Part shown: positions 6,911-61,400 of the stretch, in pieces
Layout: each line of letters begins with the position of its first letter
Position numbering within the stretch: the stretch's first letter is position 1
IMG/VR virus record: IMGVR_UViG_3300036770_003758
Span: 38,211-102,210 of that record
Reading direction: 5' to 3' (one strand)
Length of the DNA stretch: 64,000 nucleotides
Source of the DNA: a virus
The notes under the pieces: model-generated
What the model saw: only the letters and a program-made list of their open reading frames with translations
Told to the model about the DNA's origin: nothing
The model's database searches: none
Program-made: the position numbers and the translations under genes

Positions 6911-7573
6911 TTACTCATAGCCCATTGCCTCAGATACTACAGGGAACCTGTGTTTAAATAGTGAAAGAATTTCATAAGCTACCTGACGATGTTCTAGCTG
7001 CGTGTGTTCATCACAACGTACAGAAAGATAATGTATCCAAGAACGTACAGAACCTTTCATGTACATCGTAGTACTGGTAGCTAACGGTAATATACTTCTT
7101 GCAGTTTCTCTAGATACATCAGCGTTTAACAACGCTTCATACGCATCAAAAGTAAGATCTGTGACCATACTTACAAGTTCATCAGCTTGGTACTGTTGAT
7201 CGTGCAATGTTACAATAGGATTAAATTCTTCTTCAGAAGATTGTCTATTGTTCTTAGCTTGTTTACGTAAAGAGATAGGTTCTATGCCTTGTGCATTTGC
7301 ATATCTCTGTGAACGTTCTTGAAAAGAAAAAGAACGATGTCTAAGAATCTGTGCTGCTATAAATCTACTGGTTACAATCTCAACAGTATAATCTACCATT
7401 TCAAAAGGAGACCAGTGTTTTTTGTTGATCAGGTAGCGTAAAAGCTTAGGTGCTGTATTTAAGTTAAGTTGATTCTCTGGATTACTAACCCTAGCTTCAT
7501 ACACAATTAGATCTTCTGCTTTATCAATACCTTTTACTAAAGGCATTGTGATAGATACTTCAGATACTTTCAT
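6911..7573 (-). CDS. thyX: Flavin-dependent thymidylate synthase
   Basis: HWSPFEM, QILRHRSFSFQERSQRY (RHRx7S), ARSILP, HTQLEHR. Confidence 0.95.
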   Translation of the reverse strand: MKVSEVSITMPLVKGIDKAEDLIVYEARVSNPENQLNLNTAPKLLRYLINKKHWSPFEMVDYTVEIVTSRFIAAQILRHRSFSFQERSQRYANAQGIEPISLRKQAKNNRQSSEEEFNPIVTLHDQQYQADELVSMVTDLTFDAYEALLNADVSRETARSILPLATSTTMYMKGSVRSWIHYLSVRCDEHTQLEHRQVAYEILSLFKHRFPVVSEAMGYE

Positions 7574-7578
7574 AGTGT

Positions 7579-7851
7579 TTACATTAACGATAGGATAAAT
7601 TCATAAGCTTGTGCTAATTTTTCGACATGAGTTTGCTTACTAGAATTTTCCATAATGTGATTAAATATAAGACTTAAACTCTTTACTTGTAAGGAGTCGT
7701 CTATGTTTAGATTAGGTATTTCGTGTTCGCTGTAATGGGTTAGATACAGAGACATTATCCTTAACTTCTGTATCTTCGGTAGCCTTTGAAAACTTTCTGA
7801 TAAATCTGCGATGTTCATTTTTTGGATTTTTAGAACAATAATACAAATCAT
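7579..7851 (-). CDS. Hypothetical protein
   Basis: ORF in operon; start probably MNIADL. Confidence 0.55.
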   Translation of the reverse strand: MICIIVLKIQKMNIADLSESFQRLPKIQKLRIMSLYLTHYSEHEIPNLNIDDSLQVKSLSLIFNHIMENSSKQTHVEKLAQAYEFILSLM

Positions 7852-13679: not shown

Positions 13680-15550
13680 ATAAATAGCGTTAGTTGGTTT
13701 TGTATTAAACCAAGGTCTGTAAGTATTTCTTCTGCTTTACGTTTGTAAAAATTGTAGTCTATGTTGTAAGGACCTTTAACATACTTATTAAATATCGTAA
13801 CCTTAGTAGATTTGATATTACCTAACGCATGTTTCTTACCTTGACGCTCTTTAAACAAAAAGTTTCCATCTTTAGAAACATAATACACATTTAGACGCTG
13901 TGGTAATTGCTCATCACCCAGGTACATCGTGTAAGACTTATCTATCTTTTGCGCACCACAGAAATCGTAGATACAACACCTATCAAAAGTATCTTGTAAA
14001 GGTGTGGTATTGACTAAATAATTTTGTACTGCTTTAGGTACTGCTAAAAAGTCCACCTTATTACCTAAGTCTGGGTCAGTAACAAACCAACCTTTTTCTT
14101 TGATAGAACCATCTTCAAATACGCCTAAATAGCTGTTCACATTAAGCATATAAAGCGTATTGTATTTAAAATGTTCTAATTCAAAGCCAGTGTACTCTTC
14201 CCATTCTTTGCATTTAGCCATGAACTCGTCAAACTTATGTTCAGGTACATAAAGCTCAAAACCGTCAGTGTTAGCCATAATAGGTTCACAACCTAAGCTG
14301 ATAGCTTCTTCCAGTAACATCAACAAAAACAGTTGACCGTTAATAGTAATCCTAAAGAAACTGTATGGGTCATACACTGGTGAGTTTTCTTGGTTAAAGT
14401 TACCGATAGTACCATTAGCTGCTAACTTAAGCAAGTTAGCTTCTGGTGATTTACCTTGACCAGAATGTTTAAGTTTAAGTCTTTCTTTACGGATGTAACC
14501 TAATTGCTCGTATAACTTACACTGTAACGTTTCAGCTAGTGCAGGGTAATAACCAGCGACATCTAAAGAATGAAAAATATACCCTGGTTTATTACGATAT
14601 GTAGCTGGTTTATTTTTACTATGCAAGCCACCTTGCTTAAGTTCAAACTGCACACCAGCTAATGTCACGTTAAGATGCAAAGGTTTTTTACGGTGATGCT
14701 TGTTGACTTGAGTAAGTAGTACTTTAAGTTCGTGTGATTTGAATTTGATGCGATTGTCTACGACTTCATAGAAGAAATTAAAGTCCCTAGGTTCAGATAT
14801 AGGCGCGTCGGTAAGTTTAAGTGCTACGTTAAGACCTAGTTTAACAGCATCTGCACTAAGTATAGATTTGTTAAACCCATACTTTTGTATTGCTGCTTTA
14901 CGTAGATCTATCATTTCAGGAAACGTAGTAGATTTACCTTGCCAGTTAAACTTTTTAGTAAGCAGATACCTTAAAATACCTAAGTCGTGAACTGCGTTAT
15001 ATTCCAATAGCTTCATTCGCATATCATCCTGTACAGGTTGATCTGGTTTAATAGGTAACTCTTGAATAACAGGATAACGTAACTGCACAGCTAAGCCTTT
15101 TAAGCTTATTTTTTTGGTGATACGCAGCATTCTAGACCAGTACGTAAATAAGTCAATGTCGTGCCACTTGTGATGCCACTTATACTTCTTGTAATCTTCG
15201 TTCATAAACCAAGTGTCATCTGTAATCACTAAGTCTGAAAACATCTTAATGTCTTCGTTATTAGCTTCTGGGTTAAGACGCACGTAGTTTAGCACAGGAC
15301 AATCGTAGTGTACACCGTTAAACGTAACTACTTCAGTTCTTTTCTGATCTAATAAGTTTAGGTAATGTATAAGTAACTGCCTATCGTCTTGGTACTTATC
15401 GTAAATAAAAACGTGGGTGCTACCGTTAAAATCAGTAACACCCACGCAAAAGAAATTTACAAAGCACTCAACGTCTAACCCAACTCTAGTAGCATTACAG
15501 AGTTGCGTATAAACGTATGGCATGTTTTGAATCATAGAAGGTGTGGTCAT
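13676..15550 (-). CDS. DNA polymerase family B with 3'-5' exonuclease
   Basis: ExoI DVECF, ExoII FNGVHYD, ExoIII YNAVHD; SLDVAGYYP, KLAANGTIG, ANTDG. Confidence 0.9.
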   Translation of the reverse strand: MTTPSMIQNMPYVYTQLCNATRVGLDVECFVNFFCVGVTDFNGSTHVFIYDKYQDDRQLLIHYLNLLDQKRTEVVTFNGVHYDCPVLNYVRLNPEANNEDIKMFSDLVITDDTWFMNEDYKKYKWHHKWHDIDLFTYWSRMLRITKKISLKGLAVQLRYPVIQELPIKPDQPVQDDMRMKLLEYNAVHDLGILRYLLTKKFNWQGKSTTFPEMIDLRKAAIQKYGFNKSILSADAVKLGLNVALKLTDAPISEPRDFNFFYEVVDNRIKFKSHELKVLLTQVNKHHRKKPLHLNVTLAGVQFELKQGGLHSKNKPATYRNKPGYIFHSLDVAGYYPALAETLQCKLYEQLGYIRKERLKLKHSGQGKSPEANLLKLAANGTIGNFNQENSPVYDPYSFFRITINGQLFLLMLLEEAISLGCEPIMANTDGFELYVPEHKFDEFMAKCKEWEEYTGFELEHFKYNTLYMLNVNSYLGVFEDGSIKEKGWFVTDPDLGNKVDFLAVPKAVQNYLVNTTPLQDTFDRCCIYDFCGAQKIDKSYTMYLGDEQLPQRLNVYYVSKDGNFLFKERQGKKHALGNIKSTKVTIFNKYVKGPYNIDYNFYKRKAEEILTDLGLIQNQLTLFI

Positions 15551-15998
15551 GATACGTAACTACTTTTTCATTTTTAATAGTCCTTAACCATTTCTTGTCA
15601 GTTGCAATTTTTTCGTTTGCAAAATACAATACTGTTTCTGGTAGAACTTTCTCTTCCATGACCAGTACTCTAAACGCAGCGTCATAAGATTCTTGATTAG
15701 GTTTTTGATGAAAGTATTTAGTGCTTACACCGTCAAATTGTCCTTTAGACAATATTACGGAACGAATACTAGTTTTCACACCTAATTTTGAAAAATATTT
15801 CTGCCTGTTTACAACAACTTGTGCTACTGCTAGTTTACCGACCATAGGTTGATTACCAGCTTCGCAGTAAACAAGTCTTGCAAGTAGTTGTAAATCGTCA
15901 CAAGACTTTGCTGATACTGTAATTGTGTCACCGTATGCTACATAAATAGGTTCTGGAGACACGAACATTAACGTAAACCATAAACATAATTTCATCAT
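15495..15998 (-). CDS. Cell wall hydrolase, SleB/Hydrolase_2 family, with signal or anchor sequence
   Basis: LLARLVYCEAGNQ...GKLAVAQVVVNR...GQF...LYF...HTFY. Confidence 0.9.
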   Translation of the reverse strand: MMKLCLWFTLMFVSPEPIYVAYGDTITVSAKSCDDLQLLARLVYCEAGNQPMVGKLAVAQVVVNRQKYFSKLGVKTSIRSVILSKGQFDGVSTKYFHQKPNQESYDAAFRVLVMEEKVLPETVLYFANEKIATDKKWLRTIKNEKVVTYHDHTFYDSKHAIRLYATL

Positions 15999-16046
15999 TA
16001 TGTATTTGGTGAAACAATAACAAGGTACTTACACCTTGCCTTAGAC

Positions 16047-16088
16047 AAAAAAACTGTTTGAGTTAGGTGTTACCCTAACCCAAACAGT
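16047..16088 (-). terminator. Rho-independent terminator after the AAA ATPase
   Basis: ACTGTTTGAGTTAGG/CCTAACCCAAACAGT stem with a T-run on the minus strand. Confidence 0.7.
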
Positions 16089-16160
16089 ATTGATACCTAG
16101 TCGATTATAGGTAGGTACCCACTAACATATACGTAAAGTTAGTGAATTACCTCCAATAAA

Positions 16161-17594
16161 TCAACCCTTGTAATCCTCAGATGAATACTCAGCAATGATA
16201 CCAGGCGCAGCCTTCTGAAGAACAGTGTGCATAACCTTACCTGCGTAGTACTCAAGGCCAGCAGGTTTCTCCTGATCTTTGTGAATAAACGCATTGTGCT
16301 GCGTGATCTGAGAAATGTTTGCTTCGATGAAATCTTCGGTAAGTTCAATGTTGAGTTCTTCAGCAGCCAAGATCAGACGCTTGCACAACTGAGTAACTTC
16401 TGAGCCAGCGATGTTTTCTGGCAAACGATTTGCAAGCTTCTCGGTGTCGATGTTCTCAAAGCCAGCGATGTGATCCAAGTTGAGGTCCATGATGGTTTTA
16501 GACATCTCTTTGGTGCAATACGGAAACTCCACGATGAAGTCAATCCTGCCACTGCGACGGAAGCTCTGATGAATACGATCGATGTTGTTTGTAGTAAACA
16601 CAAAGATAACATCGGTATTCTTCAAGCTTTGGCCATCGATAGTATTAAGGATATCGTTCATATCCGAGTTACGCTCGCCACCGAGAACATCGTCAATGTC
16701 TTCTGCAAACACTGTAGAGTAACCATAGTTCTCCAAGTATGGAAGAAGAGTTTCGAGTTGGTTAGAGTTGTGCAGATAAAAGAATGTTCTACCAGCATCA
16801 ATAGATTCTTTACCAAGACGAATGGCAGTTTCTGTTTTACCCGTACCGTAAGGGCCATAGAACAACATCTTCTGAGACTTCTTGTTGTGAAGTTTCACAT
16901 ACGGAAGAATCAGGTTCGTAATCGTGACGTTGGTATCACGGCTAAGCACGATGTTCTTAGCTACCTTGAGGTTGATAGGGTGCATAAGCAAACCAGAACG
17001 CAATTGTTCAATAGTAACAGCTTTACCTTGCATCACCTTGTTGGTAGCAACTTCTTTGCCGATGTTGCTCAGGAATGCTTCTGCTGTTTTCTTGTACCTG
17101 TTCTTACACCGGATACCAATAGCACTTGGTGTCAACGTAAGGATAGCATCATCCCACACCTTGATAACCATAGAGCCGATGAACGCAGATTCTTCGATCT
17201 TGTTACCCTGGTCATCAAAACCAATAGGAATTTGCATGTACGTAGATTGCGTACGATCACCAGTGTAATCACGTGGCGATTCGATGAACTTACCAATAGT
17301 TTTGGTAAGCACGCGGTTTACGGTAAGCAAGAAATCGTTCAAGAAAAAGTTGGAGTAACTTTGTGCTACGGTAGTAATGCTTTCTTCGTGCTCATACTGC
17401 GCAATCAGTGTTTCTGATGCTTGTAAGTAGTCCATACCTCTTGGTAACAAGATGTGTGGATGGTCGTGATACAGAGGTTCTTTTGAGTTCTGATCAACTC
17501 TTGACTTGTAGCCGCTAGGCTTCACTGCGTTGAAGAGATCTTTGATAAACTCAAGACCTGCTGCAACTTGAACTTCTTTGACTTTTTTAGTCAT
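16161..17594 (-). CDS. Classical AAA ATPase (FtsH/CDC48/BCS1-like module) with an uncharacterised N-terminal region
   Basis: YGPYGTGKT, VFAEDID, FTTNNIDRI, RRSGRID second region of homology. Confidence 0.9.
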   Translation of the reverse strand: MTKKVKEVQVAAGLEFIKDLFNAVKPSGYKSRVDQNSKEPLYHDHPHILLPRGMDYLQASETLIAQYEHEESITTVAQSYSNFFLNDFLLTVNRVLTKTIGKFIESPRDYTGDRTQSTYMQIPIGFDDQGNKIEESAFIGSMVIKVWDDAILTLTPSAIGIRCKNRYKKTAEAFLSNIGKEVATNKVMQGKAVTIEQLRSGLLMHPINLKVAKNIVLSRDTNVTITNLILPYVKLHNKKSQKMLFYGPYGTGKTETAIRLGKESIDAGRTFFYLHNSNQLETLLPYLENYGYSTVFAEDIDDVLGGERNSDMNDILNTIDGQSLKNTDVIFVFTTNNIDRIHQSFRRSGRIDFIVEFPYCTKEMSKTIMDLNLDHIAGFENIDTEKLANRLPENIAGSEVTQLCKRLILAAEELNIELTEDFIEANISQITQHNAFIHKDQEKPAGLEYYAGKVMHTVLQKAAPGIIAEYSSEDYKG

Positions 17595-17628
17595 GATAAA
17601 GTGTTTATGAGTAAATAAATAAATAGCC

Positions 17629-17730
17629 TTATTTGCGTGCGATAAGTACCGTTAACCCACCGGGTTGTTCGTACAAATCGCAGTTTTCATCTTTAGGGGT
17701 AATTAGCCAATGTAAATAGTACACTTGCAT
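17629..17730 (-). CDS. Array micro-ORF, last unit (33 aa)
   Basis: MQVYYLHWLITPKDENCDLYEQPGGLTVLIARK; ends about 35 bp before the AAA ATPase start. Confidence 0.65.
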   Translation of the reverse strand: MQVYYLHWLITPKDENCDLYEQPGGLTVLIARK

Positions 17731-18814
17731 ATCTTAGTATTAAAAAGTAAGAACTGTTTGTTAAATTGTTTTCTATTCTAAGGTGCACGTGCATGTGGTA
17801 ATAAAACGTTATAAGTTTCATGTTTTAAACTTTAACGTTGCCGTCATAGCACTGTGGTCAGACTTAGCGTAATTAAAAGAATCTCTTATCACGTGGTTTA
17901 AATCTAAACCAAGTATAAACTTAAGTTTGTTTAATTCCATTGCTGTAGTTTTTGAATGTAGAAAATAGAAGTCTTTACCAGCAAGAATACAGTTCGTCGT
18001 TTCATAGACCACCAGTATTTCTTATTCATGTGAATGCTGTATATATTCATCTATTGTAATTTTTGAACTAAACCGCAATAGTTATATTCGTATACTAAAC
18101 TACAGTGAAAAGTAGGATGTACCCACTGCATACTTTTAAATATCAACATATTAACTTATTTATTAATATAAATATTTTTGAAGCAGCGTCTATTTTAACT
18201 GCACTAGTGTAATATTGATACGGAAACATTGTTGAAATTCCTCTTATCAGCATACCGTGTGCTTAAGTGTTAACAAATACTTAGTTCTAACAGTATTTAC
18301 TTTAGCGATATGAAAGTTAAAGTGAAAATTCTGGCATTTGACAACTATATTAATTACTTGCATACCATGTATTTCAACAAGGCTTTTACATCGACTCTAT
18401 TTTCATTAGCGTTTCTGAAGCAAAAGTCTTGTGCCCTTGTTAATCTTAAATCAGATAGCTCCATTACATGTATTTTAATAAAGTTATGTAATTCTTTCTT
18501 TTGTAATGTTCAGCATACGTGGTTATCATCTCGTAGCTGTTACCAATTGCGTAGTCTAATATAATGTCGTATAAACGATCGTTTATTTCCATAACATGTA
18601 TTTTGCGATTAACCTAATGTCAACGTCAAGTTTTTCTGCAGTATCTTCAAATCGTATAAGTTTCTTTGAACCAAAAAAACTTACATTATACAATGTAGTA
18701 CACCTCATACAATAAATTTTAGACAGCAATCGTGAAAAACAAATGGCCAAGTAGAAGCTTTGTATAGTTCTTTACAACCAGCAGAGTAGTTTGTGAACCT
18801 AAACATTAACGTGG

Positions 18815-18943
18815 TCATTTGTATTTGTTTTTAGACTTACGTTGATCTTTTTTGTATTCTACGTAGGCCATCGTGTAAGCAAACACTAGAATAAAGCTTA
18901 CGATAAACAAAAACCCTAAAATTATTTTTGCGAAATTATCCAT
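18815..18943 (-). CDS. Array micro-ORF, single-TM peptide (42 aa)
   Basis: MDNFAKIILGFLFIVSFILVFAYTMAYVEYKKDQRKSKNKYK. Confidence 0.75.
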   Translation of the reverse strand: MDNFAKIILGFLFIVSFILVFAYTMAYVEYKKDQRKSKNKYK

Positions 18944-19031
18944 GGTTATATGTATTTAATTGTTAACAAATATTTAGTATTAAACATTTCTCCTGATATA
19001 AAAGTGTGTACAGGTTGTATGTGGTATCTGT

Positions 19032-19145
19032 TTAATCTTTCTGTTGGCATTGGTGAAATTTTACAATTAGTTGATAAGTATTTCTAACAGTAGGTGTGTA
19101 AAACATCATGGTGTATACGTGATATTTTATCTTTACTACAGGCAT
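19032..19145 (-). CDS. Array micro-ORF (37 aa)
   Basis: MPVVKIKYHVYTMMFYTPTVRNTYQLIVKFHQCQQKD; paralog of the adjacent unit. Confidence 0.75.
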   Translation of the reverse strand: MPVVKIKYHVYTMMFYTPTVRNTYQLIVKFHQCQQKD

Positions 19146-19234
19146 TTTACAATTAGTTGTTGATAAGCATTTATAATAGTAGGTACATGATAGGGCATGT
19201 TGTGCGCATGATACCATATTTTTATCACATGCAT
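19136..19234 (-). CDS. Array micro-ORF (32 aa)
   Basis: MHVIKIWYHAHNMPYHVPTIINAYQQLIVKCL. Confidence 0.75.
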   Translation of the reverse strand: MHVIKIWYHAHNMPYHVPTIINAYQQLIVKCL

Positions 19235-19859
19235 TTTACAATTATTTTTAAGTAGTGATCATAATAAGGTTTCCACATAAGCTTTCTACTTATACGAGCA
19301 CGTGTGTAATCTATTTCTTCACTCCACATATTTTGTAGTTATTAAAGTGTACGCGGCTGTATACGTAAATGTTCTATACAGTATATAAACATTATTCTTG
19401 TCAAATAAATAAAAAGATTTAGCTATATTCATTTTTGTTTAAATACGATTAAATAAATAGTATTTACATTGTCAAAATCTGCATCACAGTACTTTTCTTT
19501 TTTAGAGCAGTAGTAATACTGATAATAAAAATCGTCAACTTCAAATTCCATAGTTTACAGTTTATACGTTTGTGATACAATAAAGTGCAACTTAGTTCCA
19601 CCAAACTTGATTTTGTGAACAAAAACTTCTTGCATAATAAAGAATATGTTCATAGCTGTTTAATTAGCACAAGATTTGAACCTAAATTGTAGTTAAATGG
19701 TACAAAAAGTTGACCAGGTACGTGAAATTTAAACTCCATTATCATGTCAGTAGTATTTAAGCATTGTGATAAACGCGTGTAGATGATACTCTATCGTTAT
19801 AGCTGGATAGCATTTAGGCACGTAGAACGTATAGCTTTGTTCCATAGTAGATATTTTAC

Positions 19860-19982
19860 TTATCTGCATCGTATATGTTTTACTACAATTCTAAATCCAA
19901 TGTCTAGTGTAAGGTCTAATATATTTCTATTAGGAAACCTGAGTTCGTAATTAGCTTGTACAAGCGTGTTATAATACATCAT
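19860..19982 (-). CDS. Array micro-ORF (40 aa) ending in an FGE-like GFR strand
   Basis: MMYYNTLVQANYELRFPNRNILDLTLDIGFRIVVKHIRCR. Confidence 0.8.
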   Translation of the reverse strand: MMYYNTLVQANYELRFPNRNILDLTLDIGFRIVVKHIRCR

Positions 19983-20104
19983 TGCCGTAGAAATTTTAAC
20001 ATTAAAATAAACCTATCTCTTTCTGTCATATTGTTGTGTATGTATTGAATAACACTTTTACCCATACCTCTAAAATCTGGATATATAGCTGTTAAATACA
20101 TCAT
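19979..20104 (-). CDS. Array micro-ORF (41 aa)
   Basis: MMYLTAIYPDFRGMGKSVIQYIHNNMTERDRFILMLKFLRQ. Confidence 0.85.
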   Translation of the reverse strand: MMYLTAIYPDFRGMGKSVIQYIHNNMTERDRFILMLKFLRQ

Positions 20105-20223
20105 GGTATAAACTTTAGTGTAAAAATAAATCTGTCTATTTCAGATATATTCTCAGGTAAATATTGAATAATGTTCTTACCCATGTTTCTAAACTCTGGG
20201 TACATAGCAAGTAAAGACATCAT
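20101..20223 (-). CDS. Array micro-ORF (40 aa)
   Basis: MMSLLAMYPEFRNMGKNIIQYLPENISEIDRFIFTLKFIP; paralog of 19979-20104. Confidence 0.85.
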   Translation of the reverse strand: MMSLLAMYPEFRNMGKNIIQYLPENISEIDRFIFTLKFIP

Positions 20224-20338
20224 AGTATTTGTTTTAATGTTATACTAAACCCATGACATACTGGTTCACGTAAACCATGTAGATAAGTGTATTTTATTTT
20301 TGTGCGACTGTGATTAAATAAAATCGCAATTAAATTTC

Positions 20339-20470
20339 TCATGGTACGTGTTTTAAGATAAGTTGAAATCTATCATAAGATGTGATTCTTTCTTGTGTTT
20401 TAAGCGTTTTTTTCAAAGGTGTAAATTTTCTGCGATAAGTTTTAAGAAGCCAGAAGTGTATTGATTTCAT
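20339..20470 (-). CDS. Array micro-ORF (43 aa)
   Basis: MKSIHFWLLKTYRRKFTPLKKTLKTQERITSYDRFQLILKHVP. Confidence 0.8.
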   Translation of the reverse strand: MKSIHFWLLKTYRRKFTPLKKTLKTQERITSYDRFQLILKHVP

Positions 20471-20586
20471 TACATATGTTTTAAAATAAGTTGAAACCTA
20501 TCCTCGTACACAATATCAGCTACAAGATTTGCTTCTACCCTACTCTTGTAAGCTGCAGGATTGCGTACAAATATTACTGCTAACAT
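20470..20586 (-). CDS. Array micro-ORF (38 aa)
   Basis: MLAVIFVRNPAAYKSRVEANLVADIVYEDRFQLILKHM. Confidence 0.8.
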   Translation of the reverse strand: MLAVIFVRNPAAYKSRVEANLVADIVYEDRFQLILKHM

Positions 20587-20799
20587 GGTATTTGTTTTAA
20601 TGTAGCATACAATCTGCGTACAGTATTTCCTGGGTTACATAAGTTTATGCGCAAGTATCTGTAAAAATCAATTTGTATTTCAATATTCTTCATGATGTTT
20701 GTTTTAATATTACAGTAATTTTTATACGTTTTATATCTATCTCAATATTTCTTACAAAATCATCACAACGTGTACTTGAACAATCGATAATTACAACTG

Positions 20800-20904
20800 T
20801 CATTGTATATGTTTTAAAATAATAGAAAAGCCCTCGCGACCGCTGTATCCTAGTATCATTACAGTCAAATAAGCGGCTGTATATCCATATGAGTAAGTTT
20901 TCAT
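20800..20904 (-). CDS. Array micro-ORF (34 aa)
   Basis: MKTYSYGYTAAYLTVMILGYSGREGFSIILKHIQ. Confidence 0.8.
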   Translation of the reverse strand: MKTYSYGYTAAYLTVMILGYSGREGFSIILKHIQ

Positions 20905-21005
20905 GGTATCAACTTTAAAGTAATCGAAAAGGATTCATCTCCACTATGTCCTAGTTCGTGCACAGAAATACAACTGTATGTGTGTTCATATGCCCATGTG
21001 TTCAT
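20901..21005 (-). CDS. Array micro-ORF (34 aa)
   Basis: MNTWAYEHTYSCISVHELGHSGDESFSITLKLIP; paralog of 20800-20904. Confidence 0.8.
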   Translation of the reverse strand: MNTWAYEHTYSCISVHELGHSGDESFSITLKLIP

Positions 21006-21988
21006 AACATTAGTTTTAATATTATTGATAAATCATCTTGAATAAAATCGTACACTTCAGGTGCATTTATAATATGTGTTCCAAGAACTAAGTGTATCGT
21101 GTTCATAGTATAAACTTTATCATAACTAGAAAATCATCGTCAAAAAATGGTATTAAACCACGATCTTTGTCTACTAGTTTGCAAGAATATATTACGTATG
21201 TTGTTACGTCCATAATATTTTCATTGTAATTAAAATACTATCTTCTCCATAGAATATGTGATCTACAAGTGTTATGTATTTTGTGTCCACAATATTAGTT
21301 TTAACGTGATTATAAAATCATCGTTTAGGTTAGTAGAATATTTTAACACGCTCAATAAACACGAGTGCGCAGTAACTAATGTTTTTGTACATTCCATCTC
21401 AATACAATTAAGAAATCTTTATCTTCAAGTTTTGTTTTTTCTAGTCTATCCAGTAAATGCTTGTTATCGTGTGTACCAATAGGCATACATAGATCTAACA
21501 TTGTAAAATGTGCTATTTCCATCACATGTATTTAACCATAAAAATAAAATCATTCTTGACGTAGCTACAATTACTAAATGCTAAGTAATCTAAATACAGT
21601 TTACAATCTATACTGTGTACCCACATTGTTAAGTCTGTAAATTTCATAACATGTACTTATTTGCTAACTGTAAAATAACCTTAAGATGTGCACAGTTGAT
21701 ATAAGATGGAGTAAACACATCATTATCTAGTAAGATGTATTCCCAATCCCTATGTTCTACTTGCATAACATATACTTTTTTATAAGCCTAAAGTTAGGTT
21801 TAAAGAAAGCGTATTTAATAATATAAGGTTCAAGAAATGCATCTGTAATATAATTCCAACCAGTTTCTACTTTCACGATATCTGTTTTACAATAATTAAA
21901 GGTAATACAGTAGGCTTACTTATTTTGCGATCAGCATCATACATTGGATTTGATATAGGGAGGTTTACGTAAAACGTCATAAATGCTA

Positions 21989-22114
21989 TCATGGTACATA
22001 TTTTAATACGAATACAGTAATATCTATGTTAGGTGCATGTTTTGATTCAGTGTGAAATCTATAGATATCGTGAAGTCTATAACTATCAAAAGTGTAATCT
22101 AATGAAGCTTTCAT
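21989..22114 (-). CDS. Array micro-ORF (41 aa)
   Basis: MKASLDYTFDSYRLHDIYRFHTESKHAPNIDITVFVLKYVP. Confidence 0.8.
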   Translation of the reverse strand: MKASLDYTFDSYRLHDIYRFHTESKHAPNIDITVFVLKYVP

Positions 22115-22202
22115 ACAAGCGTTTTAAGAGTTACAATAAACTGTTGTGTCAAATACGAGTGTGAATAAAATCTCCAGTCTAGTTCGTATACTTTCTTTAC
22201 GC

Positions 22203-22310
22203 TCATTGTACGTATTTTATTACAAGTACAGCAATATCCCTATTGTGCGGATGTTTTAATTCAGGATGGATTTTATGACCACCTCTAGTGTAGTTTAATA
22301 AAGCTCTCAT
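22203..22310 (-). CDS. Array micro-ORF (35 aa)
   Basis: MRALLNYTRGGHKIHPELKHPHNRDIAVLVIKYVQ; paralog of 21989-22114. Confidence 0.8.
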   Translation of the reverse strand: MRALLNYTRGGHKIHPELKHPHNRDIAVLVIKYVQ

Positions 22311-22404
22311 ACAGATATTTTATTGATGGTTAAAAAAGATGTACCTGCGTAAGTTATTTTTAATTTTACTCTAGGGCTGTCGACCCATAAAATGTATAAC
22401 AACT

Positions 22405-22506
22405 TCATTCTGCATTTTTTATGATAGCAAATAAACATAATCCAGCTTTACCAGATCTTCTGTCATTTTTAAGGTTAGTGCCTACGACACTGTGTGTTAT
22501 AATCAT
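22405..22506 (-). CDS. Array micro-ORF (33 aa)
   Basis: MIITHSVVGTNLKNDRRSGKAGLCLFAIIKNAE. Confidence 0.8.
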   Translation of the reverse strand: MIITHSVVGTNLKNDRRSGKAGLCLFAIIKNAE

Positions 22507-22615
22507 TGTATGTGTTTTAAGTTAATTCTAAATCTAAGTACAGTAATGACATAGGTTTTAAGATCTATTTTAAGTACTATGTCAGGTTGCATAGTTTGTA
22601 CAAATCCTACAAATT

Positions 22616-22717
22616 TCATGGTTTGTATTTTAAAATAAAAAATAAAGAAAATCCTGCTTCACCAGATTTGTAATTGTGTTTAAAATTAGATTCTCCAATA
22701 CTTAAAATCGCTGTCAT
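22616..22717 (-). CDS. Array micro-ORF (33 aa)
   Basis: MTAILSIGESNFKHNYKSGEAGFSLFFILKYKP; paralog of 22405-22506. Confidence 0.8.
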   Translation of the reverse strand: MTAILSIGESNFKHNYKSGEAGFSLFFILKYKP

Positions 22718-22863
22718 GGTATGTGTTTTACAATAGCTCCAAAATTACTTGCGTTGTGATTCAAGTTTAAATAATCTACAGCTTCGTGTAAACGTATAGT
22801 CATGTAGTTATTTATGTACGGTGTAGTAACTGCTCTGTACATCATTAAGTCTATAAACTTCAT
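22714..22863 (-). CDS. Array micro-ORF (49 aa)
   Basis: MKFIDLMMYRAVTTPYINNYMTIRLHEAVDYLNLNHNASNFGAIVKHIP (3' part of track ORF 22714..22941). Confidence 0.75.
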   Translation of the reverse strand: MKFIDLMMYRAVTTPYINNYMTIRLHEAVDYLNLNHNASNFGAIVKHIP

Positions 22864-23213
22864 GATATAAGTTTTAATATAAACAAATGTCCACGACTTT
22901 GGTGAGATGCGTTCATTACGTAGTTTTTTGGAAGTGTCCAATCATTTACAGGTGGTACGTATGCAATTATGTGTTTTGTTTCCACGGTATTACTTTTAAT
23001 ATGATTAATGTTTTTATTGATATCATACTTGTTAGCAATCGTACGTTGTGAGAATATTTATCGTTTTTAAAAAGCGGTACTGTTCTCATAAAACTAGTTT
23101 TAACGTAAAATAAGCAGAATAAGGTGGTACATTATCTAGCTGTAATATCTCAAGTGCGTGGTCTGTTAAAGTACATACAAACTCGTCTTTAACAAGTGTC
23201 ATTTCAATAAACC

Positions 23214-23336
23214 TCATAGCTTATACTTTTGTACAATTATTACTTTCTTCTTAGTAGTTGTGTAGTTTAACGGCCCTTTCCATGTAGTAAAGTGCGTACG
23301 TACAGTATCTATAAATATTAAATCGACATTGTTCAC
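23214..23336 (-). CDS. Array micro-ORF (40 aa, GTG start)
   Basis: MNNVDLIFIDTVRTHFTTWKGPLNYTTTKKKVIIVQKYKL. Confidence 0.7.
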   Translation of the reverse strand: MNNVDLIFIDTVRTHFTTWKGPLNYTTTKKKVIIVQKYKL

Positions 23337-23472
23337 AGCTTATGTTTTTGCACAAAAAAAAGTAATTACGATCTTTAAAAGTGTGATCTACCACTATAGG
23401 TATTTCCGCAAAGTTGATTGTCAAAAGTGTAAAGCTGTTTTTGAATATTAATACTATATAAACATTGCTCAT
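23251..23472 (-). CDS. Array unit apparently frameshifted at a T8 run (73 aa as read)
   Basis: One extra T at 23354-23361 would give ...RNYFFFVQKHKL* ending at the usual junction. Confidence 0.6.
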   Translation of the reverse strand: MSNVYIVLIFKNSFTLLTINFAEIPIVVDHTFKDRNYFFLCKNISCEQCRFNIYRYCTYALYYMERAVKLHNY

Positions 23473-24027
23473 AGCTTATATTTTAATAAGATATTGTAAT
23501 GAAGCATGTAATTACCTCTACCTGTGAGATATACATCTATACCATTGTCACGTATATCTAACAATAATCTGAGTGTGTTCATTTTCTGTATTTTATTACA
23601 GCCCAGAAATGCATCAATAAACCTGTACCTATATGTCGATGTAATATTATATTACCATCTGTAGATTTAAAGTTTGATATCTCAAGTACTCCTAAGTAGT
23701 TCATGGCACCAGTTTTAATATCGATAAATAACAAAAATCAATTTTTAAAAATCTCTTTGATTTAGGGCACTCATCATGCAGTGAGTACATTATAAATAAG
23801 TACATAGATAGGTATGTGTTTTAATATTGCAAAAGCAGTTAGCTTAGATATAGATAATAATCTACTGTACACTTTAATATCAGCAAACAAAATTGTAGTT
23901 TTCATAACATGGTTTTAACTGTTACAGGTATGCTAATTTCATCAGGTAGTAATATATATGAATAAAGTTTATTTTGCTGCGTTATGTACAAAACTTCCAT
24001 TTTCATAGGTAGGTATATTAAACACAA

Positions 24028-24050
24028 ATGCCCTTGGTTTACAAGGGCAT
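24028..24050 (-). terminator. Hairpin directly upstream of the micro-ORF array
   Basis: ATGCCCTTG/CAAGGGCAT 9-bp stem followed by an imperfect T-tail (TTGTGTTT) on the minus strand. Confidence 0.55.
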
Positions 24051-24056
24051 CGTGGA

Positions 24057-24197
24057 TTATGCAATTTCTGCAAGTTCTGGTTCTAAACCTGGGTAGATTT
24101 CTCGTATCTTAATCTCAGCTTCATCTTTACTAGAAGCTTCAATATGTACGACACCAGCACCAATAAAAAAAGTAAAAATTTGCTTTTCTTCTTCCAT
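24057..24197 (-). CDS. Small acidic hypothetical protein (46 aa)
   Basis: MEEEKQIFTFFIGAGVVHIEASSKDEAEIKIREIYPGLEPELAEIA; below the ORF-track cutoff. Confidence 0.65.
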   Translation of the reverse strand: MEEEKQIFTFFIGAGVVHIEASSKDEAEIKIREIYPGLEPELAEIA

Positions 24198-24221
24198 AAT
24201 GTTTTGTTTATTAAATTAGAC

Positions 24222-24251
24222 AAAAAACCAGGGCTATATTTCAAGCCCTGG
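24222..24251 (-). terminator. Rho-independent terminator
   Basis: CCAGGGCT-TGAAATAT-AGCCCTGG-TTTTTT on the minus strand. Confidence 0.75.
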
Positions 24252-24277
24252 TACATAGTGAATCAAAGTATAAGGAG

Positions 24278-24442
24278 TCACTTGTTTTTCCAGATACGTT
24301 CTTTAGTCTTTTTTCCAGTAACAGTACACACTGTTTCTAAGTAAAACGCGCCGTGATTAGGTAAGCTTTCTTTAATAGCTTCGATGCTATCAGCTTCTAA
24401 GATGCGTTTACCTTTTTCGGTCACAATGTAATACTTTTTCAT
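24278..24442 (-). CDS. Small hypothetical protein (54 aa)
   Basis: MKKYYIVTEKGKRILEADSIEAIKESL...RIWKNK (3' part of the track ORF). Confidence 0.6.
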   Translation of the reverse strand: MKKYYIVTEKGKRILEADSIEAIKESLPNHGAFYLETVCTVTGKKTKERIWKNK

Positions 24443-24449
24443 GTTTGTG

Positions 24450-25280
24450 TCAATAGAAAAAGACATTAGACATGTACTCTTCTTTTGGAAACTTATCCTT
24501 CCAGATATCCTCGTCCATATAGGGCAAGTTATCTGGAACAGCCATTTTCCACACATTGCCTACAGTATCGTAAATACCGTACTTGTTTGGTTTTTTCTTC
24601 TTTACAGGTTGTGTTTTTCCGCCCATTTCTGCAGTAGTCCATGCAATCTCTTGAATATCTGTTCGAGTGTCCAAGTTCTCAGCATGATCTGCAGCAATGA
24701 TAGTCCATTCGGCTTTTGTAGGAAACAAGAATACAGCGTGACCTTTGATAGCTGGATTATACCAGAACCACCACTGACCATTGTATTCTTTCATGATATA
24801 CGGCATTGGTTTACCGTGCATATCGTTGAGCCAGTTGATGTATGCGATTGCGTTCAAGATCTCAAGATTAATCGCTGGGCGATCATCTCGACCATAGTTT
24901 TGATCATTAGCGAGATCTCGTCCTGTCATGTAACAGAACGCGTCAAACTGGTTGAACGTAACTACGGTATCTGCTGATGCTACAAGTGGAAAACATTCTG
25001 CTGGTAGTGGTACAAAAGTACCTAAGTCGATGTCCTTGTCGCTGATAGTCTTTTGCTCAAATGCACGTTGTGATGTAGCTACAGCAACTACAAACGGTTC
25101 TACAGGTTTTCTGTTGACCACATTGATAGTTGCAATAGCATTGCGGTGTACTTCTTCAAGCTCTGGTGTATTGAAATGTGCACGCATTTTAGGTAATGCT
25201 TGTGCATACCATTTACCAAAGTCTTTAGGTGAAAAAGAAGATTTCTGTTGAACTTGCTTCTTAAACTCTTCTACAGTCAT
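24450..25280 (-). CDS. FGE-sulfatase (C-type lectin fold) domain protein lacking the terminal RGG...GFR segment
   Basis: VVTFNQF, PAIN..NAIAYINWLN, FPTKAEW, IAW, TQPVKKKKPNKYGIYDTVGNVW; no RGG or GFR follows. Confidence 0.8.
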   Translation of the reverse strand: MTVEEFKKQVQQKSSFSPKDFGKWYAQALPKMRAHFNTPELEEVHRNAIATINVVNRKPVEPFVVAVATSQRAFEQKTISDKDIDLGTFVPLPAECFPLVASADTVVTFNQFDAFCYMTGRDLANDQNYGRDDRPAINLEILNAIAYINWLNDMHGKPMPYIMKEYNGQWWFWYNPAIKGHAVFLFPTKAEWTIIAADHAENLDTRTDIQEIAWTTAEMGGKTQPVKKKKPNKYGIYDTVGNVWKMAVPDNLPYMDEDIWKDKFPKEEYMSNVFFY

Positions 25281-25351
25281 GATTGTGATTTTAGTTAAAA
25301 AGAGAAGGGAGTATTAACTCCCCTCTCCAAAGACGTAATGAAATAAGACTC

Positions 25352-25687
25352 TTAGTCCCAGGCATCGCTGATCGAATCCTCTCCTTCGCCAAGTGGGTTG
25401 TACTCAATCTGGATAGAAGAAATGTGAAGATCCGGCTCCAGTTCTACAGTTGGATGCACTGGATGCTTGAGAAAAGCTTTTTTACCTTCTGGTACCACAA
25501 AGGCAACAATGTTACCCCTATCCGAAGGAATAGGAGTAGGCATTGTAAACCCTACAGGTGCCTTGAAATTTGGTTTGAAATCATCGCGTACTACAATGTA
25601 GTCGCCTTCAAGGACGTGCTTTTCAGCACTCCCTGGCGTAACGGTTACGATCTCGTTCATGATAACGAATTTAAGATTGTTCAACAA
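25352..25687 (-). CDS. Small His-motif protein (partner of the DUF6745-like protein)
   Basis: EKHVLEG...LKHPVHPTVELEP...QIEYNP pattern; start probably MNEIVT. Confidence 0.5.
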   Translation of the reverse strand: MLNNLKFVIMNEIVTVTPGSAEKHVLEGDYIVVRDDFKPNFKAPVGFTMPTPIPSDRGNIVAFVVPEGKKAFLKHPVHPTVELEPDLHISSIQIEYNPLGEGEDSISDAWD

Positions 25688-26378
25688 TAAGTTTAAAGAA
25701 ATCCTCTTTGTTCATGTGGTACGGTGAATCTAACCACGGTTTACCTACATATTCTGGTTTAATCGTAGTGATAATAACTTCACCTTGACGGCGTATACAC
25801 TTAATGTGCTCAAGTGGTATCCTAGTTCTAAAAGCCCATGCTACTGCTGCTGCAGCATCATAGCTGCCTTTTTTGCAGAATTTTTCAGTGTGCGGCACCA
25901 TCAAGAAATACGGTGTACCAAAGTGTACGTCGAATACTTGTACAGCATACACGTGTGTTACCTTTTTACCGTTGATTGCAGGTTCACGCATCTCAGGGAA
26001 TACCTCTTTAATAGGCCTCCTTCTGAGAATGTAGTGGTTCGTAATCGTAGAGTCTTTCTGCTTAGTTTCTACAGTACGCTCATCTACAATTTCTGCATCA
26101 GCAAAGATAGTAGAAAACGGTAAAAACCTGAACAGTGCTTGGCGTTTAGCAGAAGCTTGTTCTGCCCGTAAATTAGGGAACAGTGACTTAAAATCAGAGA
26201 GTTCAGAAAACGTAATTGGTGTTACATCTTTCCAGATTTCTCTGATAAAATCATTGTTAAGTACAGGAAGATCTATGAACATGTCATCAAGATCTTCCTT
26301 GTACTTAGCCTTTAGTACCCTCAGTGCAAAGTCGAAAGGGAACAAAAAGTTCCCAATCTGAAGTACTTTCATCTTCAT
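25671..26378 (-). CDS. DUF6745-like protein
   Basis: AVQVFD...YFLMVP...AAAAVAWAF...IRRQGEV motifs. Confidence 0.5.
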   Translation of the reverse strand: MKMKVLQIGNFLFPFDFALRVLKAKYKEDLDDMFIDLPVLNNDFIREIWKDVTPITFSELSDFKSLFPNLRAEQASAKRQALFRFLPFSTIFADAEIVDERTVETKQKDSTITNHYILRRRPIKEVFPEMREPAINGKKVTHVYAVQVFDVHFGTPYFLMVPHTEKFCKKGSYDAAAAVAWAFRTRIPLEHIKCIRRQGEVIITTIKPEYVGKPWLDSPYHMNKEDFFKLIVEQS

Positions 26379-26686
26379 AGTTTCATCTTCTTTTTGGTGG
26401 CAGCGTAATTCAATTTCACCAGCTTGCGTTTAGCAGCTAGTAACATGTGCGTGCGTGCTCTTTCTTCTTTGGAATCCTTCCAGAGCCTCACATAGTGCTC
26501 GTAAAGCTCCTCATTGCACACGGTAAGGTAGAACACCGCTTCTGCATCAGACAAGCTCCTGGAGACCGTGTGAGCCTCCAGGATACCTTCTGGTGTTACA
26601 TACTCTGTAACTTCATTTACATGAGGTAAGATATGCTTCCAGTATTTGACAATGTTCATAATAGTAGATTCATTTCGGAGTGTCAT
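26375..26686 (-). CDS. Hypothetical protein
   Basis: Coupled ORF. Confidence 0.7.
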   Translation of the reverse strand: MTLRNESTIMNIVKYWKHILPHVNEVTEYVTPEGILEAHTVSRSLSDAEAVFYLTVCNEELYEHYVRLWKDSKEERARTHMLLAAKRKLVKLNYAATKKKMKL

Positions 26687-26711
26687 GATCTGTAGTTTTT
26701 CAGATTAGTAA

Positions 26712-26885
26712 TTACTTTTTTTCGTTTTTCCAAATCATCTTTCCGTTACCTTCACGGATTGTAGTGGTCTTGCCATCTGCAGTTTTCACTTCAGAGTCAA
26801 AGCCTTTTCCTTTACCAGTAGTAACTGCAGTAACACGCTTACCAGTTTCAGGGTGCTTGACGTTTACACGAATTTTCTGTTTCAT
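26712..26885 (-). CDS. Small basic beta-rich protein (57 aa)
   Basis: MKQKIRVNVKHPETGKRVTAVTTGKGKGFDSEVKTADGKTTTIREGNGKMIWKNEKK; hand-translated. Confidence 0.7.
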   Translation of the reverse strand: MKQKIRVNVKHPETGKRVTAVTTGKGKGFDSEVKTADGKTTTIREGNGKMIWKNEKK

Positions 26886-26916
26886 GATATAAAATTTAAT
26901 TGTTAGAAAATATTAG

Positions 26917-27021
26917 TTAATTATCGCTGTTGTCATTCCAGTTAATAACAGTTGAGTATATTATTGGAAAAACAACTACTACTAGCAAAATAATAGTTGC
27001 TACAATTTCATATACATTCAT
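26917..27021 (-). CDS. Single-TM micro-protein (34 aa)
   Basis: MNVYEIVATIILLVVVVFPIIYSTVINWNDNSDN. Confidence 0.55.
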   Translation of the reverse strand: MNVYEIVATIILLVVVVFPIIYSTVINWNDNSDN

Positions 27022-58498: not shown

Positions 58499-61400
58499 AT
58501 GAAATTCATACATATATTGTTTTTATTAATTCCAGTTTCTGTTTTTGCACAGTGGGGGACACCTAATCCTAGAAATATCGTATTAGGTTCTCAGACAACT
58601 GGAGATGGTCTTGTGTATAGAGGTGGTGCAATAGGTAGTGTAAATTATGTACCTAGTTCAAAAGGGTATGCTTGGATGCATCTAGATACTGTAAATAACA
58701 GGTTGTATTCTTATATTAATAGTCAGTGGCAAGAAATGAGCGCTGCGTCTATATTAGGGTTTTACAGATCTAATGATACTTTGTACTTGCAGACTACAGA
58801 TTCGTTATTTTACGCAATGACTACATCTTCTGTAATTAGTAATTCTACATATTTTAATAGCAATGGTAATGATCTATCTGGTTCGCAGGTAGATTCTATT
58901 GTAGATATTGCAGATTTACATACCTTTTATGTAAGACTTCAAAGCACAGCAAGTTCAGACGCAGAAATAACATTTAACACACCAGGGTCTGATGATGTTA
59001 GTAAAACAATCACGTTTGTAGCAAAGAATGAAAGTTCTACATATAGTATTTCTTTAGCTAATTTATATTTTCAAGGTTCGTTACTCTCCCCTTATATTGT
59101 AAATACAGGGGAAACTATAATCATATCGGCTCAAAAAACACAAAGTGGTAACCAGTGGCACGCTGCTACAATTAGTCCTGGAACTAATTTAAGCTTTTCT
59201 GGTGTATCATCTCCTGTAACATTACAGAGCAATACTGGTACAGATGTAACACTTACTGCAGGATCTGGTATAAGTTTAAGTGCAAATAGTACAAACATTA
59301 CAATTACAAACACAGGTACTTTAAATTTAGATGGAGATAAAGGAGACGTTGTGATATCTTCTTCTGGTACTGTTTACACAATAGATACTTTTGCTGTAAC
59401 TACTATTAAAATTGCAGATTCTTCAGTAACAAGCGCAAAAATGGCTGCATCATCCGTTGACCTAAGCTCAAGCGTTGTTACAAATACGCTTCCCGTATCG
59501 AAAGGCGGCACCGGATCTACCCAATTTCCAAGAGGCAGGCTACTTGTCGGGGATAGCAATTCTACTTTTATAACCAACAACAATTTGTATTGGGACACCT
59601 TAAACAAACGATTGTTTGTTGGCACGGGCTGGAGTAAAGCAGGTAATACGGTCGGCTCTCGCATCACATCGTTTGCCGCAGATAGTTCTGAGCTGGACGG
59701 AGTTGGGCACTTGCTTGTTTATCCCAATATGAATACGGCTTTTTATGGTAATGCGGCAGGCTTTTTCGTATCTAAGAACTTAAATGTAACGGATATCCTT
59801 ACAAGAAATCCATCAGAAACAGCTTTAATATTAGGAAGGCCGGGACTTCAAAATGCCTCATGGGGCAACCTTGCAAGATTTGACTTATCTAAATACACGA
59901 CCGGACAGGAGCCAAAAACGCAGTTAGACATACGCCTATCTAACGATTACAACGAAGGCGATAGCACGCCCAAGATAATGACCCTTCGCGCTGATGCAAA
60001 GGTCGGCATAAACGATACAGTGCCTACCAATACGCTTACCGTAAATGGAGATGTCCGTATAAAAAATTTGAACACAAGCGGAGACCCTACTTATTTGATC
60101 GGTGCACAAAGCGACGGCGACTTGGATAGCGTAAAACTTGGTGGCGCAATTAGCTTTGTAAACGACACGCTTACCGTAAAAGCAAGCGGCATAGATTCAA
60201 ATATGCTGACATCGTCCTCCGTTACTTGGGTTAAATTAGCGCAAGCGGTAAAGGATAGCATCGGCGCGGGCGGCGGTGGCGGCGTTACAAGCATAACTGC
60301 CGGAACCGGGTTAACAGGCGGAACTATTACAACGAGCGGAACCATTGCGGCAGATACCGACTTCCTTGTTACCGTCAACGATACGGCCTCTATGCTGTCG
60401 CCTTATCTAAGGGACGCTGACACGACAGCCATGCTCGCACCATATCTACGGGAGGCTGATACCCTTACTTTATCCAATAGGATCAATCTAAAGGTCAATA
60501 TATCTGACACAACTGCTATGCTGTTGCCTTACCTAAGAAAAGTAGTTGACAGCTTGTCTTTTGTTACAACGTATGAAGGCGTTGCAGTGTCCGGCGAAAT
60601 GATTTGGAACAATCAATCTGGGACCGTACATCTTGGAATGACGGGCGACATTGAAATGCCTATTGGACAAGCAGAGGCGCACATGGTTAGAAATACGACC
60701 GGAAGTCAGATTGCAAAAGGCAAGGTTGTGTATATCTCTGGAGCATCAGGACAAAGGCCGCTAATTTCACTTGCCGATGCAGATAGCGAAAGCACAAGCT
60801 CAGGTACATTTGGAATTACCGCAGAGGCGATAGACAACAACGATACAGGCTTTGTTTTTGTGAGCGGATATATTCACGGAATTAATACCAGTGCAATATC
60901 CCCTGGAAGCGCACTTTGGCTCGATACTATTGCAGGAGGGTTTACTACTTCTAAGCCTGTTGCCCCAATACACGCCGTCCTTGTCGGGTATTCAATTACA
61001 CAAGCCAACAACGGCACCATTTTTGTCAAAGTACAAAATGGGTACGAACTCGGAGAGCTTCACGATGTAAATGTAAGCGGGGCTGTAAACGGAAATCTTC
61101 TACGGTACAATTCATCGTTAAGCATTTGGGAGGATGCACAAGCGGATAGCGCCTCTATTGCTACAAGCGCAATAAAAACGGTACACATTGCAGATTCAGC
61201 GGTAACTTCTGTTAAACTTGCAAGTGCAAGCGTTGGGCTTAACACTGCGACTACAAGCGGAACGTTGCCTGTATCAAAGGGCGGAACGGGGCTAACGACA
61301 TTTGGAGGCGCTGGAAGGGTGCCGTACAGTACGGGCACGACAGGGACGGGGTTGCAGTTTGACACGCTTTTTAGGGTTTTCCCGGCAAATAGCAATTTTT

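Follow-up and report, generated by a model that had tools for sequence, protein, structure and literature searches.

Small genes arranged in rows have been described from phages and bacteria. In the hyperplastic regions of T4-type phages, genes are shuffled as modules through promoter early stem-loop (PeSL) cassettes (Arbiol et al. 2010, PMC2839356; Comeau et al. 2014, PMC4122927). Phages G and 121Q carry tandem gene arrays that arose by duplication and whose copies are very similar (2017, PMC5646251), and Leptotrichia carries microprotein gene arrays with up to 44 copies and no direct repeats flanking the members (bioRxiv 10.64898/2026.08.11.744246). Regions full of short open reading frames (ORFs) of mixed polarity have been reported from crAss-like phages (Yutin et al. 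2021, PMC7886860). The locus analyzed here is an array of 58 back-to-back micro-genes, called units below and named by their minus-strand start positions, in a virus genome. The window, meaning the whole 64,000-nucleotide (nt) stretch that was analyzed, comprises bases 38211-102210 of the 102,210-bp IMG/VR virus record IMGVR_UViG_3300036770_003758, which has an estimated completeness of 92%. The array is probably remodeled by birth and death of whole units through misaligned recombination, in a coupled micro-gene row that includes true paralogs and is under purifying selection.

As in the T4-type regions, a short conserved cassette lies on either side of small ORFan genes, and it is here that the breakpoints of indels and replacements between close relatives fall. 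The T4-type cassette is a sigma-70 promoter with a stem-loop terminator, whereas that of the array is a ribosome-binding core with a stop/start overlap that encodes a peptide tail; the units are also far smaller, with 58 in one unbroken chain. As in phages G and 121Q, a region of a phage genome appears to have grown by tandem gene duplication, but most units have 28-49 codons, share only a tail of 7-10 residues and are translationally chained. The Leptotrichia arrays are likewise long tandems of divergent micro-proteins, interpreted as amplification followed by divergence under constraint; they lie on bacterial chromosomes, whereas this array belongs to a phage and has a conserved junction at every unit that marks the breakpoints. 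The short-ORF regions of Yutin et al. differ in polarity, all units of the array being on the minus strand. The process would be ordinary birth and death via unequal recombination; what is unusual is the object, a crAss-like phage's coupled row of 58 units whose junction serves two purposes. Population data offer a view of how a very long row of micro-genes is built and remodeled with its units in register, and the array provides a concrete case of how very small phage genes, which largely escape annotation and family databases, arise, disappear and are exchanged.

Paralogous neighbors and copy-number differences

The positions of the array and of its features are collected in Table 1. Unit lengths are 28-49 codons as corrected, with the exception of frame 23472, which has 73 codons in the window versus 46 in the relative L002 described below. 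Unit periods are 68 to 146 nt as corrected, and most units are coupled through an ATGA stop/start overlap. The unit listed at 22438 more likely begins at 22408, where its start codon would overlap the stop of the preceding unit as ATGA. The GC content is 0.30 in the array versus about 0.37 elsewhere in the phage.

The 58 peptides were compared all against all by BLOSUM62 local scoring (1,653 pairs), with the 99.9th percentile of shuffled peptides at 37. The first-pass annotation, made from the letters of the window, had proposed that adjacent or next-nearest units are homologous and had named five pairs. All five lie at the minus-strand starts it gave and are the top five of the 1,653 comparisons (scores in Table 1); the top seven pairs are all at a distance of one or two units, for which the chance share is 6.8%. 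Because a C-terminal tail is common to all units, the scoring was rerun on peptides trimmed of the start Met and of their 10 C-terminal residues (99.9th percentile of the null, 34). The same five pairs led, with scores of 90, 56, 44, 37, and 36, and of the six pairs that exceeded the null threshold, five were at distance ≤ 2. The tail-free score was 44 for 21005/20904 and 37 for 22717/22506 (null fraction 0.0002). The five pairs are true paralogs in neighboring units.

Repeats at the DNA level can be seen in only two pairs, 20223/20104 (72% identity over 164 nt) and 19234/19145 (74% over 104 nt); 21005/20904, 22310/22114, and 22717/22506 are recognizable at the protein level only. Pair 20223/20104 has 57% amino acid and 72% nucleotide identity, and the synonymous changes TAC/TAT, AAG/AAA, and TAT/TAC, together with the peptides quoted in the annotation, were read directly in its alignment. 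Frame-keeping indels are likewise present as described, in 19234/19145 and 22310/22114. The members of the two pairs that are two units apart enclose unit 22206, which is unrelated to 22310 and 22114, and unit 22619, which lies between 22717 and 22506. Duplication of two-unit blocks was considered and rejected, the presumed co-duplicated units 22619/22408 and 22206/21992 not being similar. Tandem duplication as proposed therefore stands as local duplication or unequal exchange between neighbors, not as duplication of two-unit blocks.

The signal extends beyond the pairs. Across the whole array, the similarity of junction flanks was 0.447 at distance 1 and 0.439 at distance 2 versus 0.365 ± 0.016 expected, a level reached in 0 of 2,000 permutations. 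The excess persisted without the seven known pairs and vanished by distance 3-4. The members of the weaker pair 21876/21766 are both present in L002 (6284 and 6394), where their mutual score is 39. The pattern of closest relatives being adjacent also holds in the arrays of L002 and of the more distant relative L014.

L002 is a 105-kb contig found via the ATPase gene beside the array; its ATPase is 93% identical, and its orthologous array has 78-88% DNA identity. The two arrays have 45 units in common in the same order, with 13 units in the window only and 6 in L002 only. Both members of 21005/20904 (at 7286 and 7387) and of 20223/20104 (at 7843, diverged, and 7959) stand in tandem in L002, so for at least two pairs the duplication is older than the split between the two phages. 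The pairs 19234/19145, 22310/22114, and 22717/22506 each have a single member in L002: L002 6064 is the ortholog of 22114, with 22310 plus 22206 absent, and near 22717/22506, only unit 22717 is lacking. Two L002 units are hybrids. In L002 7727, the 5′ portion corresponds to 20586 and the 3′ end to 20470, with the switch inside a 26-nt sequence that both have, and L002 8936, the sole L002 copy of its pair, has a 19234-like 5′ end with the rest being 19145-like.

Four DNA runs of independent metagenomes, taken from other samples, supplied contigs that were mapped on the array, their strains being 95-99% like the window. The joints found in runs X5 and X6 skip one unit period each (Table 1), and both strains have one copy at 20223/20104. 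Judged by their sequences, the joints are in-register recombinants between neighboring units. Local exchange is thus upheld by the adjacency of every detectable pair, by the junction-flank excess and by the unit-precise copy-number differences. Breakpoints in the conserved cassette were found in L002 7727, within the 26-nt 3′ end, in a replacement scar at L002:7560-7620, and in the X5/X6 deletions, which are in register. In the scar, an L002-specific unit ends in its own TCTTAAAAC junction, which is followed by the last ~25 nt of window unit 20803 and then by a second junction. Separately, in one X5 contig, whose depth of 25 exceeds that of the phage contigs, 22559 is followed by CCTT and then by 19449; this contig may represent a variant with a large deletion or a different organism.

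Table 1 Positions of the array, its paralog pairs, its flanking features and the strain joints in the window
Feature	Position	Strand	Description
Micro-gene array, 58 back-to-back units	17629..24006	-	6.4 kb, between FGE-like gene and AAA ATPase
Pair 20223/20104	19979..20223	-	40 + 41 aa, adjacent, period 119 nt, score 126
Pair 19234/19145	19032..19234	-	32 + 37 aa, adjacent, period 89 nt, 3-nt indel, score 77
Pair 21005/20904	20800..21005	-	34 + 34 aa, adjacent, period 101 nt, indel-free, score 72
Pair 22310/22114	21989..22310	-	35 + 41 aa, two units apart, 18-nt indel, score 71, omega 0.51
Pair 22717/22506	22405..22717	-	33 + 33 aa, two units apart, indel-free, score 55
Weaker adjacent pair 21876/21766	21644..21876	-	39 + 40 aa, score 46, omega 0.31
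Units 20586 + 20470, recombination site	20339..20586	-	near-identical 26-nt 3′ end GATAGrTTTCAACTTATyTTAAAACA, 92%, offset 128
Three successive junctions, sub-motif ATAAGCT before start codon	23217..23472	-	junction flanks 87% alike; strain copy number varies
Joint, run X5	19136>19226		skips 89 nt = period 19234 to 19145
Joint, run X5	20347>20476		skips 128 nt = period 20470 to 20342
Joint, runs X5 and X6	20084>20218		skips 133 nt, 14 other letters between, net 119 = period 20223 to 20104
Joint, run X6	23344>23481		skips 136 nt = period 23472 to 23336
AAA ATPase gene	16161..17594	-	Pfam AAA 2.5e-13; directly downstream of array; omega 0.094 vs L002
FGE-sulfatase-like gene	24450..25280	-	Pfam PF03781 2.4e-10; upstream of array; omega 0.056 vs L002
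Terminator-like hairpin	24027..24051	-	just upstream of first unit; pattern match only

Constraint on the units and their junctions

Selection was assessed in 43 reciprocal-best unit pairs of the window and L002, which were aligned as DNA, so that the alignment was not protein-guided. The ratio of nonsynonymous to synonymous change (dN/dS, omega) was 0.31 in the annotated frame (bootstrap 0.26-0.36), versus 0.73 and 0.90 in shifted frames 1 and 2, with 237/174/299 differences at the three codon positions. The orthologous L002 array keeps its frames open. Even with stop codons ignored, the codon usage of the long phage genes favored the annotated frame for 51 of the 58 units. The ortholog frame test, omega, and codon usage together indicate that the units are coding genes under moderate purifying selection, as far as sequence comparison can tell. 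The proportion of synonymous differences (pS) was about 0.3 in the array, equal to that of the flanking genes; the nonsynonymous proportion (pN) was 0.12 versus 0.037 in the ATPase gene and 0.02 in the FGE-like gene (three- to sixfold). Constraint is three to five times laxer in the array (omega about 0.3-0.4) than in the flanking core genes.

In the paralogs, the same signal is weak. Omega over the five named pairs was 0.43 in frame versus 0.86 and 0.54 in the shifted frames, and the synonymous share was 0.310 versus 0.256 ± 0.027 for random stop-free placement, a value reached by 25 of 1,000 simulations (p about 0.03). The signal comes mainly from 20223/20104 (codon-position differences 8/8/18; omega 0.19); the remaining pairs are nearly even across codon positions, and omega is 0.55 in 21005/20904. 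The earlier claim of protein-level selection, drawn from the pairs, is therefore carried weakly by them alone and strongly by the orthologs. The same holds for the excess of synonymous or frame-keeping change, the lack of which had been set beforehand as grounds for dropping the claim: it was found weakly in the pairs and clearly in the orthologs.

Rapid diversification as in arms-race gene families, which the annotation had also proposed, was not borne out. There was no nonsynonymous excess: omega was below 1 in 40 of 42 units between the window and L002, and the counts in the 2 units above 1 were too small for significance. Within orthologous units, omega between the two genomes was 0.32 in the N-terminal part and 0.30 in the last 10 codons. 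In the five named pairs, pS was 0.40-0.61, above the ortholog value of 0.31, so the duplicates are old; they diverge slowly and have no excess of amino acid change. Two tempting explanations, arms-race positive selection and the mutagenesis by a diversity-generating retroelement (DGR) discussed below, are removed by the analysis.

The units vary in their divergence. The most constrained of the array is unit 22863 (22714-22863, minus strand; 49 amino acids), with an omega of 0.07 and one amino acid change versus L002. For single units, the pS between the window and L002 spans 0 to 0.70. The 41 codons of unit 23704 (23579-23704) are DNA-identical to L002 (pS 0), and unit 18708 (18583-18708) has the pS of 0.70. 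The patchwork of pS suggests frequent, recent exchange of single units between lineages within the array.

When the 59 start codons were aligned, a T-AAA signal appeared at positions -13 to -10, in 40-53 of 59. TTAAAA also occurs at about -14 to -9 ahead of many long genes of the phage, and the junction core agrees with the Flavobacterium-type core motif TAAAAA, a non-Shine-Dalgarno signal with a spacer of ~7 nt (PMC6028130). With the ATGA overlap, the TTAAAA core encodes the Leu-Lys of the unit before it; some of the tail that the units share thus results from the start signal of the following gene. The distance from the motif to the next ATG is unchanged even where the stop of a unit has shifted. 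Further upstream, T is conserved at second codon positions, which specify hydrophobic residues, and first and third positions are variable; this conservation is peptide-level constraint on the tail.

Promoter-like sites were not enriched in the array (44 versus 47.7 in shuffles), and a pattern search found no terminator-like hairpins between 17600 and 24000. A scan of viral contigs for a pattern of three successive junctions recovered its own lineage only; ten other matches were without a coupled chain. Two further comparisons concern the shared elements. An array of precursors of ribosomally synthesized and post-translationally modified peptides (RiPPs) would combine a common recognition sequence with a known modifying enzyme nearby. 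The units have a C-terminal tail in common, which the start signal of the following gene partly accounts for, and their neighbors are FGE-sulfatase-like and AAA ATPase genes; no known RiPP enzyme family was matched in Pfam. The near-identical 23-50-nt repeats of a CRISPR array are not seen, the conserved core being ~5-15 degenerate bases, and what would be the "spacers" are selectively constrained open frames with periods (68-146 nt) that are not uniform.

Probable recombination between neighbors and its alternatives

Birth and death of whole units by misaligned recombination probably proceeds as follows. Neighbors share a conserved 3′ end and junction, namely a hydrophobic tail ending in Leu-Lys and then the ATGA overlap, in which the TTAAAA codons of the tail would double as a host-type ribosome-binding core ~8 nt before the next ATG. 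Recombination or slippage that pairs units one or two periods out of place, yet in register, would then add a unit, remove one, or fuse two into a hybrid. Since a start and a stop come with every unit, the translation chain would stay whole. After duplication, the copies would drift under moderate purifying selection (omega about 0.3-0.4) until the tail alone is recognizable. The peptides may be individually dispensable accessory factors, for host takeover or counter-defense. The recombinant junctions defined here are clear and could be traced by experimental evolution.

Several observations weigh against this explanation. A paralog is detectable in only 5-7 of 58 units, most sharing the tail alone (7-10 residues), so that duplication as the source of every unit is an extrapolation. 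The copy-number differences are unpolarised, as a paired comparison cannot tell gain from loss, and the relatives search and a metagenome scan with the ATPase alignment found no outgroup of intermediate distance. Three slots have unrelated interiors in the window and L002; therefore, cassette replacement also occurs, which is not duplication. In the more distant relative, partial tandem repeats of recent origin at L014:6034-6307 (86% identity over 71 nt at an offset of 68 nt) do not involve the junction motif and give rise to degenerate units without the usual junction, so slippage too remodels arrays. In amino acid composition, the peptides differ little from random AT-rich open frames (r = 0.91), which fits weak constraint.

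Of the alternatives, the one that survives best, although unlikely, is that diverged alleles of one slot were placed in tandem by out-of-register recombination of co-infecting relatives, so that divergence preceded the tandem arrangement. Strains that are 95-99% identical to the window differ in copy number where the pair members are only 60-73% identical in DNA, the single copy of X5/X6 has an L002-type 5′ end, the range of per-unit pS from 0 to 0.70 points to frequent exchange inside the array, and the three slots hold unrelated cassettes, all as such stacking would predict. However, 21005/20904 and 20223/20104 are in tandem in both phages, hence the tandem state is old, and the 20223 family comprises only four clusters among 5.8 billion proteins, with no pool of foreign alleles seen; stacking is rated low for these two reasons. 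The L002 and X5 hybrids are also as predicted by simple deletion from a two-copy ancestor.

Short-tract gene conversion, which would homogenize adjacent units that were never duplicated from each other, is improbable. It would account for junction flanks being more alike at distance 1-2 throughout the array and for the mosaic units observed, but it would be expected to leave DNA-identical tracts. The best pairs are instead alike over the entire unit, in-frame indels included, and at the protein rather than the DNA level, and 20223/20104 is co-linear over its full length with divergence even along the unit.

A still smaller probability was given to a non-coding repeat, that is, a regulatory, RNA or replication element in which frames and peptides are incidental. 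The TAAAA of the junction is conserved at every codon position, as a nucleotide signal would be, the composition is near that of random AT-rich sequence, and neither Pfam nor Rfam matched the units (Rfam at the gathering score was blank across 15000-27000). Against it stand the frame-specific constraint in the 43 orthologs, 58 frames tiling 6.4 kb of 30% GC DNA, the tail T conserved at second codon positions with first and third positions variable, and the positive codon-usage frame test. DGR-type targeted mutagenesis of the copies is negligible as an explanation: short, hypervariable coding stretches next to a gene of the FGE/C-type-lectin-like kind recall such elements, with no other support, but the 102-kb, 92%-complete record has no reverse transcriptase match (RVT_1, PF00078; control genomes gave matches) and no template/variable repeat pair, just the two diverged DNA repeats having been found, and the adenine bias that had been suggested as a check is absent (adenine in 58% of paralog and 50% of ortholog mismatches versus 65% expected), transitions dominating.

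Beyond birth and death by recombination, a more speculative role of the junction is conceivable. It may be three things in one, a ribosome-binding site for the gene that follows, a C-terminal tail for the peptide that precedes, and a recombination site, and may so make the row an integrase-free cassette exchanger; this is regarded as possible but doubtful. If it were true, co-infecting phages would swap, stack and delete cassettes in register and hold a combinatorial library of tiny effectors at the population level, and the layout would be conserved while the content turns over completely.

The phage, its distant relatives and other features

By PHROG matches, the terminase, portal and major head protein were assigned to crAss-type PHROGs, and a search with the head protein matched solely crAss-like phages at ~25% identity. 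The source phage is classed as crAss-like on these matches, and its host is probably of the Flavobacteriia type. In relatives, the AAA ATPase gene anchors the array by synteny, and the FGE-sulfatase-like gene is syntenic in L002 and L014. The next terminator-like hairpin downstream of the array is at 16053-16088, after the ATPase gene (pattern match).

L014, L015, and L016 are one phage, hence no second ortholog comparison was available. Its ATPase is 52% identical, and the order is an FGE-like gene, then ~30 coupled units of 29-61 codons, then the ATPase gene. The gene at L014:3879-4724, in the equivalent position, has an FGE-like N-terminus (translations read by eye, no alignment). The L014 junction is the same as that of the window, no L014 unit resembles any window unit, and the best internal pairs of the L014 array are again adjacent. 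In L017-L019, whose ATPases are 37-39% identical, the array is absent.

When the phage collection was searched for near-identical copies of the array, there were zero matches. In public collections, the units are called as genes and form clusters of 1-3 unnamed members. Mini helix-turn-helix units, suggested by a resemblance of the tail to HTH_17 recognition helices, were dropped, as 0 of 58 units had Pfam support at E ≤ 1. AlphaFold2 models were uninformative: for unit 22863, from a single sequence, one long helix was obtained with a predicted local distance difference test score (pLDDT) of 83, and for the 20223 family, from four sequences, three short helices with a pLDDT of 68. Unit 18815-18943 (minus strand) is predicted from its sequence to be a single-helix membrane micro-protein; it is without the Leu-Lys tail and has no L002 counterpart.

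Away from the array, window positions 58499-62995 (plus strand) hold a 1498-amino acid open frame with a GC content of 0.45-0.51 versus ~0.36 in the rest of the phage, without a PHROG match. Outside the window, G000:C1:16519-30662 contains adjacent frames of 2416 and 2297 amino acids, which are likely the crAss-type virion RNA polymerase block.

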